Shown in pieces: positions 15,805 through 57,042 of a stretch of DNA of 64,000 nt; position 1 is the stretch's first letter, and every line of letters begins with the position of its first letter. This DNA comes from an uncultured Gemmatimonadales bacterium (GTDB lineage: Bacteria; Gemmatimonadota; Gemmatimonadetes; Gemmatimonadales; GWC2-71-9): assembly GCA_963842945.1 (NCBI GenBank), contig CAWJIM010000019.1, positions 608,001 through 672,000 on the forward strand, read 5' to 3'. The translations under genes and the position numbers were made by a program. Below the pieces are notes generated by a model that was given only the letters and a program-made list of their open reading frames with translations, ran no database searches and had not been told where the DNA came from.

Positions 15805-15871
15805 TGTCACCCTGAACGAAGTGAAGGGGACCATGCCTGAGATGGCCCCCTTCGCTGCGCTCAGGGTGACA
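15805..15871. repeat. REP-like palindromic element, copy B
   Basis: TGTCACCCTGAACGAAGTGAAGGGG...CCCCTTCGCTGCGCTCAGGGTGACA. Confidence 0.9.
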
Positions 15872-29556: not shown

Positions 29557-30909
29557 ATGCCACGACCATCGCTGCTCGAACGGATGGGCCTGGGACGGCC
29601 GGAGCTTCGCGCCTGGGCGATGTACGACTGGGCGGCCTCGTCGGTCCAGACGACGATCATGGTCGCCGTGTTTCCGATCTATTTCGTGAAGGTGGCGGGC
29701 GCCGGCATCGCCGAGGGCGGCGCCACGCAGCGCCTCGCGACCATCAACTCGATCGCGCTCCTGATCATCGCGCTCGTCTCCCCGCTGCTCGGCGCCATAT
29801 CCGACTACCGGGCGGCCAAAAAGCGCTTTACGGCGATTTTCCTCGGCATCGGCGTGGTCGCGTGCTGCGGACTGTTTCTGGTCGGCACCGGTGACCTGGA
29901 TCTCGGCTCCTGGCTCTTCATCGCGATCATGGTGGGCGTGGCGGGGAGCTACGTCTTCTACGAGGCGCTGCTTCCTCACATCGCCGCGCCGCACGAGATC
30001 GACCGGGTCTCGGCCGCAGGGTACGCCGTGGGGTACCTGGGTGGGGGTCTGCTGCTGGCCCTCAACCTGGCCTGGATCCAGATGCCGGCGGCCTTCGGGC
30101 TGCCCTCAGGGGAGGGGCTGAGCGAAAGCGAGGCCACGCTTCCGGCGCGCCTGGCGTTCCTGTCGGTCGCGGTCTGGTGGGCGCTGTTCTCGATTCCGCT
30201 GTTCCGCAAGGTCCCCGAGCCGCCGGTGCGGATCGAGCCGGACGAGCGTCCGGGCGAGAGTCCGGTCCGGGTCGCCTTCGTGCGACTGGGGGAGACCTTT
30301 CGCGAGCTCCGGAGCTTCCGCCAGGCCTTCCTGATGCTGCTCGCCTTCCTGATCTACAACGACGGCATCCAGACCATCATCAAGATGGCGACGGCCTACG
30401 GGACCGAGATCGGCATCGACCAGAGCGCGCTCATCGGTGCGATTCTGCTGGTGCAGTTCGTGGGCATCCCCTGCACCTTCCTTTTCGGCACCGTGGCCGG
30501 ACGCATCGGGGCCAAGCGGGCGCTCTTCCTCGGCCTGCTGGCATACACCGTGATCAGCATCCTGGGCTACTACATGACCACGGCCACCCACTTCTACATC
30601 CTCGCGGGACTGGTGGGTGTGGTGCAGGGCGGCACCCAGGCGCTGAGCCGCAGCCTGTTCGCCAGCATGATTCCCCAGCACAAGTCGGGAGAGTTCTTCG
30701 GGTTCTTCAGCATCTTCGAGAAGTTCGCGGGGATCTTCGGCCCGCTGATCTTCGCGGGCACGATCGCGGTCACGGGGTCGAGCCGCAACGCGATCCTGTC
30801 GGTGATCGGATTCTTCGCCGTGGGCGCGGTGCTGCTGGCGCTGGTGAACGTGGAGGAGGGACAGCGGGCGGCGCGGGAGGTGGAGCGGGAGATGCGATTG
30901 TCACCCTGA
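29557..30909 (+). CDS. MFS transporter (UMF1/Atg22-like)
   Basis: [14 protein letters not shown] and QALSRS motifs. Confidence 0.9.
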
Positions 30910-30965
30910 ACGAAGTGAAGGGGGCCATATCGAGCATGGCCCCCTTCGCTGCGCTCAGGGTGACA
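30899..30965. repeat. REP-like palindromic element, copy D, between convergent genes
   Basis: Near-identical to copy B. Confidence 0.9.
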
Positions 30966-43843: not shown

Positions 43844-45499
43844 CTACATCGCGCGGTACTTGGGCCCGCTGCCCCCCTCTCGCGGCGTCCAGCGCGGTCC
43901 GAGCACGTCGGTCGCCTTGCAGTCGATGCAATTCGGCGCATTGACCCGGAGCTCGTCGCCCACGCGCTCGTAGACGCCCGCGGGGCACACGTGGGAGTAG
44001 AGCTCGGCGACCTCCGCGCTCACATCCGGCCCGACCAGCAGGTGCGAGGGGATGGTGTCGCGCGTCGCGTTCCCCGACTTGAACACGGCGTCCAGCTTGC
44101 CGAACGTCAGCTTCCCGTCCGGCGTGAACGGCTCGGCCTCGGTGACCCGCCGCGGAGTGGCGGCATCCTCGGGCATCTCCATGCGCCCGCCGAAGAGCCG
44201 CCCGCCGCTGATCGTCATGAGCCCGGCCTTGAATCCGCCGACGTAGAGCCCGTCCTTGAACGCGAGTCGCATGTTCCGCGTCCGGTACATGTCGGCCACG
44301 ATGTAGCTCTCGTCCACCAGGCGGTCGTACGCCGAGAGCCGGGCGGCGGAGAGGTCGCCTTGCTTGAGCCCGGCGAACGCGGCGCGCGCGGCGTAGATCC
44401 CCGACTGCATGGCGTAGTGGATGCCCTTGAGCGAGGGGACGTCCACGAGCCCGACCGCGTCGCCCACCAGCAGGATGCCGTCGCCGCTCCGGCGCTCGAG
44501 CAGCGCATGGTACCCCCCCTCGGGGATCGTCTTGGCACCCCACTCCAGCAGCTCGCCCCCCTCCAGATAGGGCCGGAAAAGCGGGTGCAGCTTCATTCGC
44601 TGGAGCAGCTCGTGCACGTCGAGCGACGCGTCGTGATAGTCGAGCCCGACCACCAGGCCGAGGGCGATCTGTCCCGGCCCCAGCGGGTACATGAAGCTGC
44701 CGCCGAACGCGTCGTCGGGCAGCGGCCACCCGAGGGTGTGGATCACTGCGTTGAGCGGCTTCGGGGTCTGCCAGACCTCCTTCACGCCGAGCGCGAAGAT
44801 CTGCGGATTGGGCGAGCGGACTTGCTGCCACTCGCACCAGCCCTGGCTCAGCAGCCCCCGCGTTCCCTCGGCGATCACCGTCACCTTGGCGGTGACATCG
44901 GTCGGCTCGCCATAATCGGCCGTCGGCTGGCGATCGCGGTCGAGACCGGACGGGGTGGTGCGGACGCCGCGCACCGCGTCGCCCTCCACCAGCAGCGCGT
45001 CCACCGGAAACCCGGCGAACAGGTTGACGCCCGCCTGCTCCGCCCGCTCGCCCATCCAACGCACGATCTCGCAGATGGATGCCGTGTAGAATCCGGCGTT
45101 GTGCATGGTGGGCGGGGTGGGAATGCGCTGAGCGCGGCCCTCGGTCATGAAGTACACCGCTTCGCCCGCGACGGGCTGGCGGAAGGGGATGTCGCTGGAG
45201 TTGAGGTCGGGAAAGAGCTCGTGGAAGGCGCGCGGGTTCACCACGGCGCCGGAGAGATTGTGCTCGCCCAGCGCACCCGCCTTTTCCAGCACGGCGATGT
45301 TGAGCTCGCCGAGACCGCCGCCCGACTCCGCGTCCTGCTTCGCCAGCCGGGTCAGCTCGATGGCGCAGGCCAGCCCGGCGGGCCCTGCCCCGACGATCAC
45401 GACATCCATCTCGATCGCCTCGGCGCCCGGCGGATCGCGGCGGATGATCTGATCGAGCGGCAGCGGACGCTGGTGTCGGGCGGGGACGATGGTGGACAC
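43844..45499 (-). CDS. ETF:quinone oxidoreductase (FAD domain plus ferredoxin domain)
   Basis: VGAGPAG, LSGAV, KGIHYAM, CPAGVYE and NCIDCKA motifs. Confidence 0.92.
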   Translation of the reverse strand: MSTIVPARHQRPLPLDQIIRRDPPGAEAIEMDVVIVGAGPAGLACAIELTRLAKQDAESGGGLGELNIAVLEKAGALGEHNLSGAVVNPRAFHELFPDLNSSDIPFRQPVAGEAVYFMTEGRAQRIPTPPTMHNAGFYTASICEIVRWMGERAEQAGVNLFAGFPVDALLVEGDAVRGVRTTPSGLDRDRQPTADYGEPTDVTAKVTVIAEGTRGLLSQGWCEWQQVRSPNPQIFALGVKEVWQTPKPLNAVIHTLGWPLPDDAFGGSFMYPLGPGQIALGLVVGLDYHDASLDVHELLQRMKLHPLFRPYLEGGELLEWGAKTIPEGGYHALLERRSGDGILLVGDAVGLVDVPSLKGIHYAMQSGIYAARAAFAGLKQGDLSAARLSAYDRLVDESYIVADMYRTRNMRLAFKDGLYVGGFKAGLMTISGGRLFGGRMEMPEDAATPRRVTEAEPFTPDGKLTFGKLDAVFKSGNATRDTIPSHLLVGPDVSAEVAELYSHVCPAGVYERVGDELRVNAPNCIDCKATDVLGPRWTPREGGSGPKYRAM

Positions 45500-45580
45500 G
45501 TCGGACAACTCCTGGGGAAGGGGTCGGACGTCGAGGCGGCGGAAATATAACCCGCCCATCCGAGGGGCTAAGTTGGTGGC

Positions 45581-46051
45581 ATGGACCTGCACAAGGCGAC
45601 GCGGGACCCCTGGGTCTGGGGACAGCTGGCGCTGTTCGCGCTGGTCGGCCTGGGCGCGCCGCTGCTGCCCCGGTACGCCGGTCTTGGGGAGGCAGGCCCG
45701 AGTCGCATCAGGTGGTTGGGCGCGCCACTGATCGCGGGCGGTCTCGCGCTCGCCATCTGGGGAGTGCGGTCCCTCGGCCGGAGCCTGACGCCCGGCACCG
45801 AGCCGCTGCCGGGAGCGCCGCTGGTCACCTCGGGTGCATACGCCCACGTCAGACACCCGATCTATGCGGGGATCGTGCTCGGACTGACTGGCTACACGCT
45901 GGCGTGGAGCAACTGGACACTGGCGCTGCTGGTGGGGCTGCTGGCGGGGGCCTACTTCAACGGCAAGGCGAAGGCGGAGGAGCGCTGGCTGGTGCGGCGC
46001 TATCCAACGTATGAAGCGTACATGCGGCAGGTGCCGCGGCGAGTGCTGTAG
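45581..46051 (+). CDS. ICMT/PEMT-family membrane methyltransferase
   Basis: LVTSGAYAHVRHPIY and EE..L..RY..YEAY motifs. Confidence 0.88.
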   Translation: MDLHKATRDPWVWGQLALFALVGLGAPLLPRYAGLGEAGPSRIRWLGAPLIAGGLALAIWGVRSLGRSLTPGTEPLPGAPLVTSGAYAHVRHPIYAGIVLGLTGYTLAWSNWTLALLVGLLAGAYFNGKAKAEERWLVRRYPTYEAYMRQVPRRVL

Positions 46052-50348: not shown

Positions 50349-51338
50349 CTAATGCCCGCTACGCGCCTTGCGGACCTCTTCGGTCAACCGCGGCACGATC
50401 TCGAACAGGTCACCCACGATCCCGTAGTCCGCGATCTTGAAGATGGGCGCGTCCTTGTCCTTGTTGATCGCGACGATGGTCTTCGACGTGCGCATCCCGG
50501 CCAGGTGCTGGATGGCGCCTGAGATGCCGAGCGCCACGTAGAGATCGGGGCTGACGTTGCGCCCGGTCTGCCCGATCTGATCCGTTGCGGGCCGCCAGCC
50601 GTCGTCGGTGACGGCGCGGGTCGCGCCGACCGCGGCGTTGCCGAACGCGTCGGCCAGCTCTTCCACCAGCTTGAAGTTCTCCGCTGCGCGGAGGCCGCGG
50701 CCGCCGCTCACGATGACCGGCGCCTCACCCAGGTCGAGCCGCGCGCCCGTGCGCTGCGTCGTCTCCGTAACCGACACGCGCGCCGAGGCGGGATCGATGG
50801 CCGGCTTCGCCTGCTCCACCCTCGGCGTGCGCGGCTGCTCCGCGGGGGTGATGGCCCCTGGGCGCAGCGACACCAGCGCCGGCGAGCCCGCGAGCCGCAA
50901 CGTGAGAATCACCTTGCCGGTGTATCCGGGATGCCGGGCGAGCACCGCGTCACCCTGCAGCTCGAAATCGGTGACATCGGACGCCAGGCTCACGCCCAGC
51001 GCCGCCGCGGTGCGCGGGGCCAGGTCGCGGCCCTGGGCCGAGGCCGGGAAGAACGCCGCGCGATAGTCCCCCGCGCGCAGCCGCTCCGCCGCTGTCGCCG
51101 CGAACGCCTCCGGGTTGTACCGCGCGAGCCCCTCGTGCTCCACCACGAAGACCACGTCGGCACCGTAGCGGCCGAGCTCCTCGGCCCTGGCGGCGATCCC
51201 CGGCGCGCCCAGCAGGAGGGCATGCGCCTCGCCTCCTCCCGTGGCGTCGGCCGCGCGGCGCGCGGCGGTCACCGCTTCGAACGCCACCTTGCGGAGATTG
51301 CCGTCCCGCGACTCGGCGAAGGCAAAGGTCGTCGCCAT
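50349..51338 (-). CDS. etfA: Electron transfer flavoprotein alpha subunit
   Basis: [14 protein letters not shown] and [11 protein letters not shown] motifs. Confidence 0.95.
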
Positions 51339-52090
51339 CAGAGCACCTTCGCTTCCGTGCGGAGCAGCCGCACCAGCTCGGGCACGGCGTCCGCCCCCTC
51401 GCCCACGATCCGACCTCCGCTGCGCTCCGGCGGCAGGGCCATGGACTCGACGGTCAGTCGCACCTCTCCGAGCTGCGCCGGCCGCACGTCGAGCGGCTTC
51501 TTCTTGGCCGCCATGATGCCCTTGAGCGTGGCCAGGCGCGGGCGCGCAATGCCCTCGTCGATCGTGAGCACGGCAGGGAGAGGAAACGAGACCGTCTCGG
51601 AGGCGCCCTCGAGGTCGCGCCCCGCGGTGCCCCGTCCTTCGCCGAGCTCGAGATGGGAGATGGCGGTGACGGCGGGAAGATCGAGCAGGTGCGCCGTCAT
51701 GGCTCCGACGGTGCCGCTGCCGGTGTCGGTCGCCATCCGGCCGAAGAGAATCAGGTCGTACCCGCCGTCCTTGAGCTCCGCCGCCAGCGCGGCCGCGACG
51801 GCTGACCCGTCGAAGGGCACCTCGTCCGCCTTGAGCTGGACCGCTCGGGTGGCGCCCATGGCGAGCGCCTTTCGGAGGGTCTCCTGCACCCCGTCGGGGC
51901 CGAGGCTGATCGCCACGACCTCACCGCTTCCCGCCTTTTCCACCAGCTGCAGCGCGACTTCGAGGGCGTAGCCGTCGAAGTCACTGATTTCGTACTTGAG
52001 CCCACCCGGATCCAGCGACTTGCGGTCGCCCGCGATGGAGAACCTGAGCTCCATCTCCGGCACCCGCTTGAGACACACCGCGATCTTCAA
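51338..52090 (-). CDS. etfB: Electron transfer flavoprotein beta subunit
   Basis: VCLKRVP, ALAMGA and GIMAAKKKP motifs. Confidence 0.93.
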   Translation of the reverse strand: MKIAVCLKRVPEMELRFSIAGDRKSLDPGGLKYEISDFDGYALEVALQLVEKAGSGEVVAISLGPDGVQETLRKALAMGATRAVQLKADEVPFDGSAVAAALAAELKDGGYDLILFGRMATDTGSGTVGAMTAHLLDLPAVTAISHLELGEGRGTAGRDLEGASETVSFPLPAVLTIDEGIARPRLATLKGIMAAKKKPLDVRPAQLGEVRLTVESMALPPERSGGRIVGEGADAVPELVRLLRTEAKVL

Positions 52091-52161: not shown

Positions 52162-52177
52162 TGTCACCCTGAACGAA
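52162..52177. repeat. Truncated REP-like element, copy F (left arm only)
   Basis: TGTCACCCTGAACGAA is identical to the start of copies B, D and G. Confidence 0.7.
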
Positions 52178-52184
52178 CAGCCGC

Positions 52185-54419
52185 TCAATCGATGTCCGGC
52201 ACACCGCCCTCCTGCCGCGCCCCACCCAGTGAGGTCCGCACGATCAGCCGAAACATCCGCTCCGAGCCGGGAGTGAGGAAGCGCTCCACCGTCGGGCCCG
52301 CCGGATTGCCCTGATTGACGTTGTAGTTGCCGAAGCTGGCGTAGCGATTCTGCAAGACATTGGTCACCACGCCGCTGATCTCCCATCGGTCGAGCTCCAT
52401 CCCCACCCGCGCATCGGTCACCACGTAGTCGTCCAGCTTGCTGGTGACGTTGGCCTCGTCGCCGCGAAGCCATTGCTTTCCGGTGTACCGCGCGTCCGCT
52501 CCGACGTAGAGGTATCGGCCCACTCTCAGCGTCGCGCCGCCTTTGAGCAGGTGATCGGGCGACAGCGGAAACCGGTCGCCCGCCACGACCTGGTTGTCGC
52601 TCGGGAAGGGATTGAGCACCTCGCCCCCGTCCCCTTCCTCCAGCGAGCGGATGCTGAAGATGTCCGCCGGACTCTCGAACGTGGCCCGGGTATAGGCGTA
52701 GTTCAGGTAGGCGGAGTGCCCGCCCTTGAAGCGATAGGCGGCGCCGAGCTCCACCCCGACCCGTCGCGTCTTGTCGATGTTGACGAAGAAGCCGTCGATC
52801 GTGCCACCCTCCGGCTCCTCCTCCCCGAACGGGGTCAGGAAGATGTCGTCCCGCACGTCCATGTGATACACCGAGCCTTCGAGCGCGAGGTGCTCGGTGG
52901 CGTAGCTGAAGCCTGCCTCGAGAGTGGTCGCCTTCACCGGCTCGAGCGGCGGGTCGTCACCCAGCGCGAAAGGCAGCGGGCAGGGCGCCTCCGGGTCCGC
53001 GCACGCGTTCTCGATCACCGCCGGCGAGCGGAAGCTCTTCCCCCAGGAGGCGAATACCGACGCTCCGGGTCCCAGGGCGACGCTCACGCCGAGGCGAGGA
53101 TTCAGCCGGCTGTAGCGACCCACCGTGTCCGCCGAAGGGTCGAGCAGATTCTCGAAGGGGATGCGGACGTAGTCGTACCTCGCGCCGGCCGATAATGTGA
53201 CCGCCCCTCGCGTCAGATCAGCCATGAGAAAGGGCGCGATGTCCCAGATCGGGCTCCTCGCCTGGGTGGTCGACGACCGGTCGCCCCCGAACTTCACCGA
53301 GTCGGAGAAGATGTCGATCTTCACCTGGTTGATGCTGCCGTCCACGCCACCCCGCAGACTCAGCGCGAGATTCTCATCCAGCAGCGTGGCCCAGCGGTAG
53401 TCGGCGGTGTAGCCGAAGCTGCTGTTATAGGAGATGCCGAAGACGTCCGGATCCAGCGCCTGGTTGACGTTGAACCGCTCGGCACGGCTGCGGCGGAAAT
53501 ACACCGTCGCCGACCCGCGGCCGGTGCCGAGCTGGGTGTACCCCTGGAGCGAGCCCTGGTAGGACCAGAGGTCCTCGTAGTCGTTGGCGCTGAGGTTGGA
53601 GTCCGGGCTGGACTCGAAGATGGATTCCGGCAGCGAGCCCGCCGCGTGCACCAGGGAGTTGCCATACATTCCCTGGAACCGGATGCCACGGGTGTCATTC
53701 AGCTTGCCCAGGTTCACGAACCCGCTGTACTGCTCGGCCCCGGTCACGTCGCGCCAGCCGTCCTCCCGGTTGTAGTTCCCGCCTAGGTACCAGTCCACGC
53801 CGCCGCCGGTCAGACCGGAGACATTGGCCTCACCTCGGGCCGTGCCGAAGCTGCCGCCCGACAGCTCGACCGTGCCACTGGTGGGTCCGGTGCCCCGCGC
53901 GGTAACCAGATTGACCGCTCCACCCAGGGCGTTGCGGCCCAGCAGCGAGCCGTTGCCGGACAGTACCTCGATGCGCTGGATGTGGTCCATCGGGAGCAGA
54001 TCGAAGTTGACCTGCGAGGCCTCCGGCTCGTTCATCCGCACGCCGTCGAGGAACACCGCGACGCCCTGCGGCAGACCCACGACCGGCGAAGAGTAGAAGC
54101 CTCGCGAGGAGATGTTGAGCTTGTAGGGGCTTCCCAGGTCATCGTAGGTGGAGAAGCCCGCAACCTGCCGCATCGCGTCGGACAGCACCCGCGGCTCATA
54201 GGCGTCGACGTCCTCCGCTCCAAGCGTCGTCACCCGAGCCGGCACGCCGGATCCGACGGTGGGGCCGGCGTCCGGCCGAATCGTTCCGACGACCTCGATC
54301 GGAGGCAGCGCGAAGGCGCCGGTGTCCGCCGCGGCCGTGTCGGGCACCTGGGCGTGCGCGGCCCCGACGCCGAACAGTCCGGCAGTCACGAGCAGGCTCG
54401 CGAGCTTCATGCGGGTCAT
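52185..54419 (-). CDS. TonB-dependent receptor
   Basis: Signal peptide, TonB box (PIEVVG), plug (IQRIEVLSG..GRNALGGAVNLVT), barrel ending TNVLQNRY..PGSER. Confidence 0.92.
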   Translation of the reverse strand: MTRMKLASLLVTAGLFGVGAAHAQVPDTAAADTGAFALPPIEVVGTIRPDAGPTVGSGVPARVTTLGAEDVDAYEPRVLSDAMRQVAGFSTYDDLGSPYKLNISSRGFYSSPVVGLPQGVAVFLDGVRMNEPEASQVNFDLLPMDHIQRIEVLSGNGSLLGRNALGGAVNLVTARGTGPTSGTVELSGGSFGTARGEANVSGLTGGGVDWYLGGNYNREDGWRDVTGAEQYSGFVNLGKLNDTRGIRFQGMYGNSLVHAAGSLPESIFESSPDSNLSANDYEDLWSYQGSLQGYTQLGTGRGSATVYFRRSRAERFNVNQALDPDVFGISYNSSFGYTADYRWATLLDENLALSLRGGVDGSINQVKIDIFSDSVKFGGDRSSTTQARSPIWDIAPFLMADLTRGAVTLSAGARYDYVRIPFENLLDPSADTVGRYSRLNPRLGVSVALGPGASVFASWGKSFRSPAVIENACADPEAPCPLPFALGDDPPLEPVKATTLEAGFSYATEHLALEGSVYHMDVRDDIFLTPFGEEEPEGGTIDGFFVNIDKTRRVGVELGAAYRFKGGHSAYLNYAYTRATFESPADIFSIRSLEEGDGGEVLNPFPSDNQVVAGDRFPLSPDHLLKGGATLRVGRYLYVGADARYTGKQWLRGDEANVTSKLDDYVVTDARVGMELDRWEISGVVTNVLQNRYASFGNYNVNQGNPAGPTVERFLTPGSERMFRLIVRTSLGGARQEGGVPDID

Positions 54420-54436
54420 CGAGGTCAGATACGGGG

Positions 54437-55021
54437 CTAGCGGAGGGGAAAACCGGCCGAGCCGGCGGCGTCACCGGGCCGGCGCTCGTAGATCGCGGCC
54501 ATCACCACGCGGTCGGGCGGAACGCCGATGATAACCAGCCCGTCGTCGGCCGGCCCTCCGCCGTCGAAGTCGACGCAGCAGTGCTCGATGGTGACCAGTC
54601 CTCCGGTGGCAGCGCGATGCATGGCGGGGCTGGCCCCGCGGTCGAGCCGAACGAGATCGCTTTCGGTGAAGCTGCGCGAGCGGTCGATGTCCTCATAGAT
54701 GCGAAGGTGATGCACCCTGGCATCCCGCTCCGCGAGCACCAGCACGCCGTCATCGGCGTCCCCGCCGCCGTCGAGATCGTAGCAGCAGCGGTCCACCGTC
54801 ACCGAGCCCGTGGCACGCAGCAGGATCGCGCCCGCCGTTGCGGCGAGCAGAGCCGCCGTGACGGTGGCGAGGGCCTGCCGGCGTCGCCGAGGGGGGCCTG
54901 CCCCGGCGGGGGGCTCGCCTCGACGCACGCGGCCGAGGATCTCGGGGCCGAGCGACGCGCGCGGGGCAAAGGCGATGCCCCGAAGCCTCCGATCCAGCTC
55001 CCGAAGCTCCGGCTCGCTCAT
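54437..55021 (-). CDS. Putative membrane anti-sigma factor with a duplicated CCxDxDGGGxADDG motif
   Basis: ATGA overlap with the ECF gene, short N-terminal domain, one TM helix, internal repeat. Confidence 0.7.
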   Translation of the reverse strand: MSEPELRELDRRLRGIAFAPRASLGPEILGRVRRGEPPAGAGPPRRRRQALATVTAALLAATAGAILLRATGSVTVDRCCYDLDGGGDADDGVLVLAERDARVHHLRIYEDIDRSRSFTESDLVRLDRGASPAMHRAATGGLVTIEHCCVDFDGGGPADDGLVIIGVPPDRVVMAAIYERRPGDAAGSAGFPLR

Positions 55022-55579
55022 GGGGCCAGGACCTCTCGCAGCTTGCCGAGCGCTCGCCAGAGCCTGGTGCGTACGCTGCCTTCGCTGATCCGGAGGATCT
55101 GCGCCACCTCGGCGGTGTCGAGCCCGCTCCCGTACCGCAGGCCGATCAGCTCACGGTCGGCCTCGCCCAGCGTCGCGACGGCGTCGAGCAGCCGCCCGAC
55201 CTCTTCCTCGCGCAGGAGCCGCTCTTCCGGAGAAGGAGCCTCGTAGATCAGGTCGTGCATGGTGCCGAGGGCGACGTACTGCCGGAGCCGGGCGCGCCGG
55301 CGCCAATCGCCCAGGGCGTTCCGGGCTACCGTGAGAATCCAGGCCTTCGCAGTGCCGCGGGCCGGGATCGAAGCGGTCCGCCGCCCGCACCACCTTCAGG
55401 AAGGTCTCGGCGGTGAGATCCTCGGCGACGTCGGGGAGCGGGACGTGGAACCGGAAGTAGTTGTAGACCGCCGCCCCGTACGCTTCGTACCACTCGCGGC
55501 AGAGCGTCTCCGCGGCCTGTGCCGGCGCGGATCCGGAGGGGGCTGGCATGTCGGGAGCGGACACGAGTGGCAGGCTCAC
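55018..55579 (-). CDS. ECF sigma factor; frameshift near 55360
   Basis: AEDLTAETFLK, then KAWILTVARN and EVAQILRISEGSVRTRLWRAL. Confidence 0.9.
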
Positions 55580-55641
55580 GAGAAGGATTACGTACGAGGG
55601 GGCCGCGCGTCACGCGGGCTTGTTGCCTCTAACACCCGGCA

Positions 55642-55700
55642 TGTCACCCTGAACGAAGTGAAGGGGCCCATGCCGGCATGGCCCCCTTCGCGTCGCGCTC
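55642..55700. repeat. REP-like element, copy G (right end degenerate)
   Basis: TGTCACCCTGAACGAAGTGAAGGGGCC...GGCCCCCTTCGC. Confidence 0.85.
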
Positions 55701-55769: not shown

Positions 55770-56972
55770 TCACTGGATGGCGCTCAGCCCGGTGATGGCC
55801 TGACCCACGATGAGCGAGTGCATGTCGTGGGTGCCCTCGTAGGTGTAGACCGACTCGAGGTTCGCCATGTGCCGCATCGAGTGATACTCGGCCAGGATCC
55901 CGTTCGCGCCGAGCAGCCGCCGGGCCTCACGCGCGATGTCGCAGGCCATGTTCACGTTGTTCCGCTTGCACAGCGAGACCTGGTCCGGCGTCATGGTGCC
56001 GGCGTCCTTGAGCCGGCCGAGCTGGAGGGTCATGAACTGCGCCTTGGTGATCTCGGTCAGCATGTCCACCAGCCGCACCTGCTGGATCTGCGTCTGCGCG
56101 ATGGGCCGGTCGAACATCACCCGCTGCTGCGCGTAGCGGAGCGCCTCGTCGTAGCACGCCATCGCCGCCCCGATCGCTCCCCAGGCGATGCCGTAACGGG
56201 CCTGGGTCAGGCACATGAGCGGGCTCTTGAGACCGCCCGACTTGGGCAGGATCGCGTCCTTCGGCAGATGGACGTCCTGGAGATGGATCTCGCTGGTGTC
56301 GCTGGCGCGCAGCGAAAGCTTCCCCTTCTGGTCCTTGCCCGTATACCCCTTGGTATCGGTGGGAACGATGAAGCCGCGAATCGTACGGGGATCCTTGATG
56401 TCGCCCGTCTTGGCCCAGATGACCGACACCGTGGCCTGGGAGCCGTTGGTGATCCACATCTTGGTGCCGTTGAGCACCCAGCCGTCCTTGGTCTCCCGCG
56501 CGGTGGTGATCATGCCGCCGGGGTTGGACCCGTAGTCCGGCTCGGTCAGCCCGAAGCAGCCGATCTCCTGCCCCGACGCCAGCAGCGGCAGCCACTTCTT
56601 CTTCTGCTCGTCGGACCCGAAGGCGTAGATCGGGTACATCACCAGCGCGCCCTGCACCGAGGCGAAGGAGCGGATCCCCGAGTCGCCCCGCTCCAGCTCC
56701 TGCATGATGAGGCCGTACGCCACGTTGTTGAGCCCGGCGCAGCCGTACTCCTCCGGCAGGTTGGCCCCGAAGAGCCCCAGCTCGGCCATGCCGGCGATCA
56801 GCTGCTTCGGGAAACGCCCCTCGATGTAGGCCTCGCCGATGACCGGGATGAGGTTCTCGTCCACCCAGGTGCGGACAGTGTCGCGGACCGCGCGCTCCTC
56901 CTCGGAGAGGAGGGTGTCGAAGTTCAGGAAATCGACCCCGGCGAACTGGGACGTGGGGGCGGCGGTGGCCAT
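55770..56972 (-). CDS. Acyl-CoA dehydrogenase (glutaryl-CoA dehydrogenase-like)
   Basis: FGLTEPDYGS, KMWITNG and TYEGTHD motifs. Confidence 0.92.
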   Translation of the reverse strand: MATAAPTSQFAGVDFLNFDTLLSEEERAVRDTVRTWVDENLIPVIGEAYIEGRFPKQLIAGMAELGLFGANLPEEYGCAGLNNVAYGLIMQELERGDSGIRSFASVQGALVMYPIYAFGSDEQKKKWLPLLASGQEIGCFGLTEPDYGSNPGGMITTARETKDGWVLNGTKMWITNGSQATVSVIWAKTGDIKDPRTIRGFIVPTDTKGYTGKDQKGKLSLRASDTSEIHLQDVHLPKDAILPKSGGLKSPLMCLTQARYGIAWGAIGAAMACYDEALRYAQQRVMFDRPIAQTQIQQVRLVDMLTEITKAQFMTLQLGRLKDAGTMTPDQVSLCKRNNVNMACDIAREARRLLGANGILAEYHSMRHMANLESVYTYEGTHDMHSLIVGQAITGLSAIQ

Positions 56973-57042
56973 AAGCTCCTCGGGCATGGTCGGTTGGTTG
57001 GCAGGGGGTAAGATAGCCCGCCCGCCGACCCCGCGGCAGCAC

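Follow-up and report, generated by a model that had tools for sequence, protein, structure and literature searches.

The TonB-dependent receptor LutH of Methylorubrum extorquens (META1p1785 / Mext_1853; PMC7391723, PMC6850437) belongs to the lut cluster; its promoter is repressed fourfold by La3+ (PMC7391723), and PMC6850437 points out that Mext_1853 has neither a sigma nor an anti-sigma gene in its vicinity. The mluARI genes of M. extorquens are tied to lanthanide supply and are described as a cell-surface signalling system with a siderophore-type receptor (PMC11317620); in the open-access literature no other lanthanide-linked sigma/anti-sigma/receptor unit was found. Known lanthanide regulators come from Proteobacteria, and a 2024 review (PMC11146143) counts the sensing of lanthanides by bacteria among the open questions. 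The present report concerns a three-gene unit in a stretch of 64,000 nucleotides from an uncultured Gemmatimonadales bacterium (contig CAWJIM010000019.1, positions 608,001 to 672,000; hereafter the window), which encodes a sigma factor of the extracytoplasmic function (ECF) type, a small membrane protein (the partner) and a TonB-dependent receptor. It is a real, conserved regulatory unit, apparently undescribed (no paper on it was found in the open-access literature, subscription journals lying outside the search), and as a whole it is very probably lanthanide-linked.

The three genes lie closely linked on the minus strand, where a preliminary description had placed them (coordinates in Table 1); the start of the partner gene overlaps the sigma stop in an ATGA (55021-55018), and 17 bp separate partner and receptor. 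Like mluARI and FecIRA, the locus combines a TonB receptor with an anti-sigma and an ECF sigma. It resembles a metal-uptake ECF switch, yet neither feature of the FecIRA type was found: no STN or other signalling domain was detected on the receptor at E 0.1 (Plug from residue 59, barrel after it), and hhalign gave the partner a probability of 0.06 against E. coli FecR. The locus thus differs from FecIRA, and from mluARI as that system is described, and its receptor is of the LutH clade; the earlier verdict that this is not a FecIRA-type cascade was upheld on both points.

Partner relatives numbered 990 at E<=0.001 (127 cluster representatives). Fifty-five loci taken from a part of the homologue matches were examined, and 53 showed the periplasmic module of the partner; the sigma gene was upstream in 50 of these, the receptor downstream in 51, and both in 48. 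The order sigma, partner, receptor was kept in unrelated genomic settings too. Two sigma/partner pairs stand in tandem ahead of one receptor at L058 (G113:C27), and an MS_channel_1st_1 repeat membrane protein is encoded downstream of the receptor in 17 loci (L021, L022, L026 and others).

A predicted ECF promoter of the form GTGAC-N16-CGTA (Table 1) ends 9 nt ahead of the GTG start of the sigma gene. Of 46 sigma copies of the window type, 41 have the exact pattern ahead of them, against a mean of 0.04 in shuffles (this count omits 5 loci whose C-terminal domain is another one); spacers of 14, 15, 17 or 18 gave no match upstream of the sigma copies, and the pattern was directly upstream in none of 20 receptor loci without the cassette. 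Since ECF sigmas usually autoregulate, we infer that the sigma reads this site. In two genomes (G007, L025/L243; G162, L090/L244) the cassette is split and the sigma gene was left between GCDH and ETF genes; the promoter site remained at the partner gene, after which comes the receptor in G007 and the contig end in G162. That the promoter-like site remains with anti-sigma and receptor is consistent with the proposed control of the system over its own receptor, as judged from sequence. A scan of 5 near-complete relatives returned the own site of each genome and 3 extra matches against 3 control matches, i.e., chance level; the extra matches, one of them inside a cytochrome gene of a xox cluster, were rejected. 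Another of these chance-level extras lies about 130 nt before a further TonB receptor (L133, G165:C3:1680436).

The sigma has the ECF layout (regions 2 and 4 only, about 185 residues). Both regions were found, but, in a correction to the preliminary description, not in one open reading frame: in the window they lie in different frames owing to one extra base (Table 1). Contigs of four public runs from 3 studies (X1, X7, X8, X2) are each one base shorter at this point, the sigma is a single unbroken frame in most relatives, and several other genes of the assembly also look split; the extra base is therefore probably an assembly error, the alternative being a strain-specific mutation. The best match of an intact relative (L016) was TIGR02952 (BldN family) at 116.5 bits, below the cut-off of 206. 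Among the matches listed in the available supplement of PMC7826278, TGTGAC was given only for ECF118, with another -10 element, and no ECF group was assigned.

The partner shows a single hydrophobic stretch after an RRRR motif (best 19-residue Kyte-Doolittle window from residue 50, score 2.08), in agreement with the one transmembrane helix first reported. In the model, two helices are followed by one hydrophobic helix and an all-strand domain (pLDDT, predicted local distance difference test, 90). The outer part is built from a unit of about 55 residues, present in one or two copies: CC-x-D-x-D-GGG-xx-DD-G, two strands, then YED-x-D-x-S-x6-D. Both repeats were recovered at the residues given in Table 1; the second loop of repeat 2 stops early in the window, after IYER (54493-54482), and is retained in full in the relatives P0136, P0141 and P0168. 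Invariant in all 44 two-repeat rows are C79, C80, C148, C149, D84, D90, D91, E110, D151, D153, D159 and D160, with no His/Met-rich site among them; in the second loop of repeat 1, E110 is conserved in 44/44, D111 in 43/44, D113 in 43/44, S115 in 41/44 and D122 in 42/44. This DIDRSRSFTESD loop had been called EF-hand-like. The acidic loop itself is present (residues 109-122), but in two models (pLDDT about 90) it is flanked by strands only, with no helix-loop-helix, and as modelled it is not an EF-hand.

That the partner is an anti-sigma factor is strongly suggested by its gene position (+1 of the ECF sigma), its one predicted helix and its predicted cytoplasmic N-terminal domain, for which a weak match to the anti-sigma family NF052375 was obtained (E 0.0067). 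The zf-HC2 domain marks anti-sigma factors, and a zf-HC2 finger stands N-terminal to the same module in 13 of 20 hand-picked distant relatives (7 at or above cut-off), which, together with the sigma linkage, bears out the anti-sigma role assigned at first. The window-type partner is without the zinc finger. Sigmas of the zf-HC2-type loci form a separate branch with only 28-34% identity to the window type, and the module is thus common to two sigma lineages. The likeness to single-helix ECF anti-sigmas (zf-HC2/ZAS; those of BldN-family sigmas) extends to the cytoplasmic domain, the outside domain, the overlapped stop and start and the promoter-like site in front; unlike them, the window type has an outside domain of no Pfam family, no zinc finger and a sigma under the BldN cut-off. 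Longer fused forms gave 15 matches, and those opened or known were zf-HC2 types, long-linker types or read-through products. In five further loci (L083-L087) of family f7 genomes, a protein whose N-terminus is related to that of the anti-sigma but whose C-terminal part differs, by eye TonB_C-like, follows a 41-43% identical sigma between gap and pgk.

For the module, no consistent Pfam match was obtained among 51 members, and Foldseek returned nothing at E<=0.001, whether queried with the complete model or with the domain alone. The best VIA-align result was to propeller fragments (Z 5.1, root-mean-square deviation 4.5, 79 aligned); a profile search of PDB sequences with the domain yielded one chance match (E 2.2), and in the Atlas the partner fell in its own cluster (0.89) with no usable match among named clusters. 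Empty fold searches do not establish a new fold. The module is, like LanM and LanP, a small acidic periplasmic domain in a lanthanide-uptake context; unlike helical EF-hand LanM and the PepSY pair of LanP (PMC9988556), it is predicted to be all-beta, membrane-anchored and fused to a regulator.

The receptor belongs, by sequence, to the LutH clade. In a tree of 33 rows (LG+G4, 3 long-branch rows left out) the 23 in-group receptors, including L142, L151, L153 and the lanM-linked receptor of M. nodulans, form one clade at 100/100, apart from PqqU, FhuA, Fiu, FepA, CirA, FecA and BtuB; a quick tree with all 36 rows left the fork of this clade open. The LutH references received their name from gene order, standing at the lutH position of lut-type clusters, rather than from the AM1 sequence. 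Gemmatimonadota receptors are the sister branch to the proteobacterial rows. Searches with phmmer connected the window receptor to lut-type and plasmid proteobacterial relatives at E 1e-54 to 1e-67, against 3e-19 for PqqU, 5e-11 for CirA and 3e-9 for BtuB. A C-x(5-8)-C-x-LP loop occurs in 22 of 23 in-group rows and in 0 of 13 others; this loop, the plug motif and the lack of a signalling domain are shared with the lut-type receptors, to which the window receptor is only about 30% identical; unlike LutH, it adjoins neither a lut ABC (ATP-binding cassette) transporter nor lanM. It scored below every NCBIfam cut-off, siderophore, B12 and heme families included; heme receptors were compared by these scores only, none being among the tree rows. 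The LutH resemblance proposed in the preliminary description is thus supported, and the receptor did not group with siderophore or B12 receptors.

PqqU is common in Gemmatimonadetes (PMC12124388). The window receptor differs from it: the family score was 87.6 bits (range 87.6-92.7) against a cut-off of 1200, and the receptor lies outside the PqqU pair in the tree, whereas a separate PqqU-like receptor of the same assembly scored 345 bits and joins E. coli PqqU with support of 100/99. Judged by phylogeny and neighbours, the window receptor would import Ln3+ or a lanthanide chelate into the periplasm.

The source assembly (GCA_963842945.1, G000) is mixed. The window lies inside a stretch of about 200 kb (G000:C19, about 550000-749892, 69-71% GC) that is joined to 64-65% GC sequence and is colinear with contig C21 over about 140 kb at 65-83% DNA identity; two Gemmatimonadales species are combined in one assembly. 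Its xoxF, pqqC and PqqU-like genes sit on 64-65% GC sequence; because the assembly is chimeric they are not assignable to the organism of the window, of 70% GC, and they were rejected as its context. Genome context was therefore taken from relatives; in the closest, G021 and G020, a XoxF-like gene of C3 type encodes the lanthanide-type Asp (L123, partial; L114). A search of G000 (87% complete) showed no LanM.

For co-occurrence, 350 genomes were drawn from the phylum and three dehydrogenase candidates were scored per genome; C3-type means at least 62% identity to the C3 enzyme. The receptor was found in 76 genomes, the module in 45 (rows reaching the repeat) and a XoxF-like match in 118, of which 65 were C3-type. 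The receptor was present in 60 of the 65 C3-type genomes, in 6 of 53 with other XoxF-like matches only (one unpublished genome, G196, is counted in both the 118 and the 53), and in 10 of 232 without a XoxF-like match. Among the module genomes, the receptor is present in 44 of 45 (the remaining case is 538 bp away from a contig end), and a XoxF-like match in 40 of 45. A second Asp is the mark of lanthanide-type pyrroloquinoline quinone (PQQ) dehydrogenases; of the 5 module genomes without a XoxF-like match, four have some PQQ dehydrogenase with this Asp and G303 does not. The genome search for xoxF suggested in the preliminary description thus links the unit to lanthanide-type PQQ dehydrogenases in relatives. 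Separately, G258, G261 and G328 hold 15 to 44 PQQ-dehydrogenase-like matches per genome.

Single loci such as those in G277, G148 and G303 are more telling than these counts. At L081 (G277:C1), genes for PepSY, a LutB-like propeller, a cytochrome and XoxJ-like and XoxF-like proteins directly adjoin a zf-HC2-type pair; PepSY and propeller genes come after a sigma/partner pair at L075 (G148:C140), and in G303 a separate receptor of PqqU-like type comes after the unit. The two module loci without a receptor adjoin LutB-like propeller and PepSY genes, one of them beside xoxF-J-G. The PepSY proteins of L081 and L075 are possible lanpepsy-like binders in Gemmatimonadota. In a plasmid collection 27 records match the receptor; of 9 relatives opened, 4 have as neighbour a PQQ dehydrogenase whose lanthanide position is an Asp, and 1 has lanM (175 bits against a cut-off of 135). 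Among the metagenome relatives of the lanM-linked receptor are loci in which genes for an ABC binding protein, a propeller, a small protein, an ATPase, a permease and an exported protein, in this order, precede the receptor; since this matches the lut cluster of PMC7391723, their receptors were taken as LutH by position; only 13 of 41 loci of at least 10 kb showed one of four lanthanide markers.

Because the sigma and an acidic twin-cysteine partner precede a LutH-related receptor in a conserved unit, the partner is likely a metal sensor, as far as its sequence indicates. It is regarded as reasonably probable that this anti-sigma, through a predicted lanthanide-binding module, controls the sigma, its own operon and a LutH-clade receptor importing lanthanides for XoxF-type dehydrogenases. 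The partner would hold the sigma at the membrane through its cytoplasmic domain, and the receptor would bring Ln3+ or its chelate into the periplasm; carboxylate loops pinned by vicinal disulfides would bind Ln3+, and the loaded module would keep the sigma held. An empty module would free the sigma, probably via proteolysis, to transcribe sigma, partner and receptor from GTGAC-N16-CGTA, the outcome being a negative feedback that switches the importer on when lanthanides are scarce. Negative feedback is favoured because La3+ represses lutH (PMC7391723); the receptor of M. flagellatus is induced, not repressed, by La3+ (PMC9988556), so control in the opposite direction occurs too. More tentatively, and with somewhat less confidence than doubt, the module may be a new lanthanide-selective fold, and such partners the first membrane-bound proteins to sense lanthanides directly and act on an ECF sigma; two sigma lineages unrelated to each other would have recruited them to control LutH-type uptake in abundant soil Gemmatimonadota.

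Several observations weigh against the sensor mechanism, besides the induction in M. flagellatus. Asp-rich loops bind Ca2+ as well; since lanthanides are poorly bound by Cys, the CC pair would have to serve structure or redox chemistry. The promoter pattern was not seen upstream of xoxF in the 5 relatives scanned; 32 of 76 receptor-bearing genomes are without the module, and the cassette is therefore dispensable for the receptor. The co-occurrence counts are confounded by kinship, related genomes not being independent, and the Asp test is unspecific, as membrane glucose-dehydrogenase-like proteins pass too (L043, L111). G303 has the cassette, yet its one dehydrogenase match is without the lanthanide-type Asp. 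No lanthanide marker was nearby in 4 of 9 plasmid receptor relatives or in 28 of 41 long metagenome loci, and a receptor relative in Ideonella adjoins nickel and copper genes.

The best surviving alternative, although unlikely, is that the receptor imports lanthanides while the module loops hold structural Ca2+, the signal being envelope Ca2+, Cys-Cys redox state or a periplasmic partner (PepSY, LutB, apo-XoxF). Dx[DN]xDG-like loops are classic Ca2+ sites, all four module cysteines are invariant, and PepSY and LutB-like genes adjoin the module in L075, L081, L073 and L092. Against this reading, the module is kept in two unrelated sigma lineages and, in the loci seen, stands next to lanthanide-linked genes alone; a general sensor of Ca2+ or redox state should command a wider regulon, and the 5-relative scan gave none beyond chance. 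A new form of cell-surface signalling, in which contact of the module with the loaded receptor or its chelate would release the sigma on arrival of cargo, so that lanthanides induce the operon as inferred for mluARI, is improbable: it would suit the receptor downstream of the module in 51 of 53 loci and the La3+ induction in M. flagellatus (PMC9988556), but the receptor is without a signalling domain, the partner is unlike FecR and two loci keep the sigma/partner pair with no adjacent receptor. Equally doubtful is another metal or cofactor as cargo of the Gemmatimonadales receptor branch, with the twin cysteines sensing Cu, Ni or another thiophilic metal, for although the receptor is a sister branch only about 30% identical to lut-type receptors, has a relative beside nickel and copper genes and finds its best solved-structure match in PqqU (YncD; PDB 9c4o / 6v81; E 3e-17), it tracks XoxF-like genes, the module adjoins xoxFJG, a separate PqqU-like receptor (with E. 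coli PqqU, 100/99) lies next to it in L074, and the invariant residues hold no His/Met-rich site.

If the sensor mechanism is true, it would show how an abundant, mostly uncultured soil phylum manages its metal supply for XoxF. The soluble domain of 120 residues, the defined promoter and the receptor can each be tested in standard hosts. Should the domain prove lanthanide-selective, it would join lanmodulin and lanpepsy as a third binding scaffold that is not an enzyme, and could serve to sense and separate rare earths.

Table 1. Features of the three-gene unit (window positions).
Feature	Positions	Strand	Basis
Predicted ECF promoter	55589..55613	-	-35 GTGAC 55613-55609, 16-nt spacer, -10 CGTA 55592-55589
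ECF sigma gene	55018..55579	-	
ECF sigma, N-terminal part (region 2)	55363..55579	-	PF04542 E 7.6e-8
One extra base shifting sigma frame	55362..55367	-	absent in contigs of runs X1, X7, X8, X2
ECF sigma, C-terminal part (region 4)	55018..55362	-	PF08281 E 3.6e-11
Partner gene, 194 residues	54437..55021	-	
Partner residues 1-49, predicted cytoplasmic two-helix anti-sigma domain	54875..55021	-	helices 3-14, 24-34 (model)
Partner residues 50-68, predicted single transmembrane helix	54818..54874	-	hydropathy; model helix 44-69
Repeat 1, CC-x-D-x-D-GGG-xx-DD-G loop, residues 74-96	54734..54802	-	sequence, conservation
Second acidic loop of repeat 1, YED-x-D-x-S-xxxxxx-D, residues 109-122	54656..54697	-	conservation
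Repeat 2, CC-x-D-x-D-GGG-xx-DD-G loop, residues 143-165	54527..54595	-	sequence, conservation
TonB-dependent receptor, LutH clade, 744 residues	52185..54419	-	PF07715 and PF00593 over cut-off
Receptor plug motif	54104-54027	-	alignment, phmmer and motif search
Receptor C-x(5-8)-C-x-LP loop	53003-52971	-	motif search

The runs holding the window best were soil and rhizosphere metagenomes, and the named relatives are uncultured Gemmatimonadales. RNA runs gave short low-depth contigs only, one of them spanning the partner/receptor junction, and these say nothing on expression level. The receptor has acyl-CoA dehydrogenase and ETF genes as neighbours; the unit as a whole is framed by housekeeping genes of ETF-QO-like, ETF alpha/beta and acyl-CoA dehydrogenase type (43844-45856, 50349-52090, 55770-56987). 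The second organism of the assembly has a receptor copy at the same GCDH-ETF site (G000:C21:301387-303624, 49% identical), without sigma, partner or promoter. A REP-like palindromic repeat, very abundant in soil contigs, was observed at 55642-55691, 52162-52177, 15805-15870, 30899-30964 and 18936, with one copy on either side of the three-gene unit; a reading of this flanking direct repeat as a mobile-element end was rejected, since further copies occur throughout the window and in numerous unrelated soil contigs.

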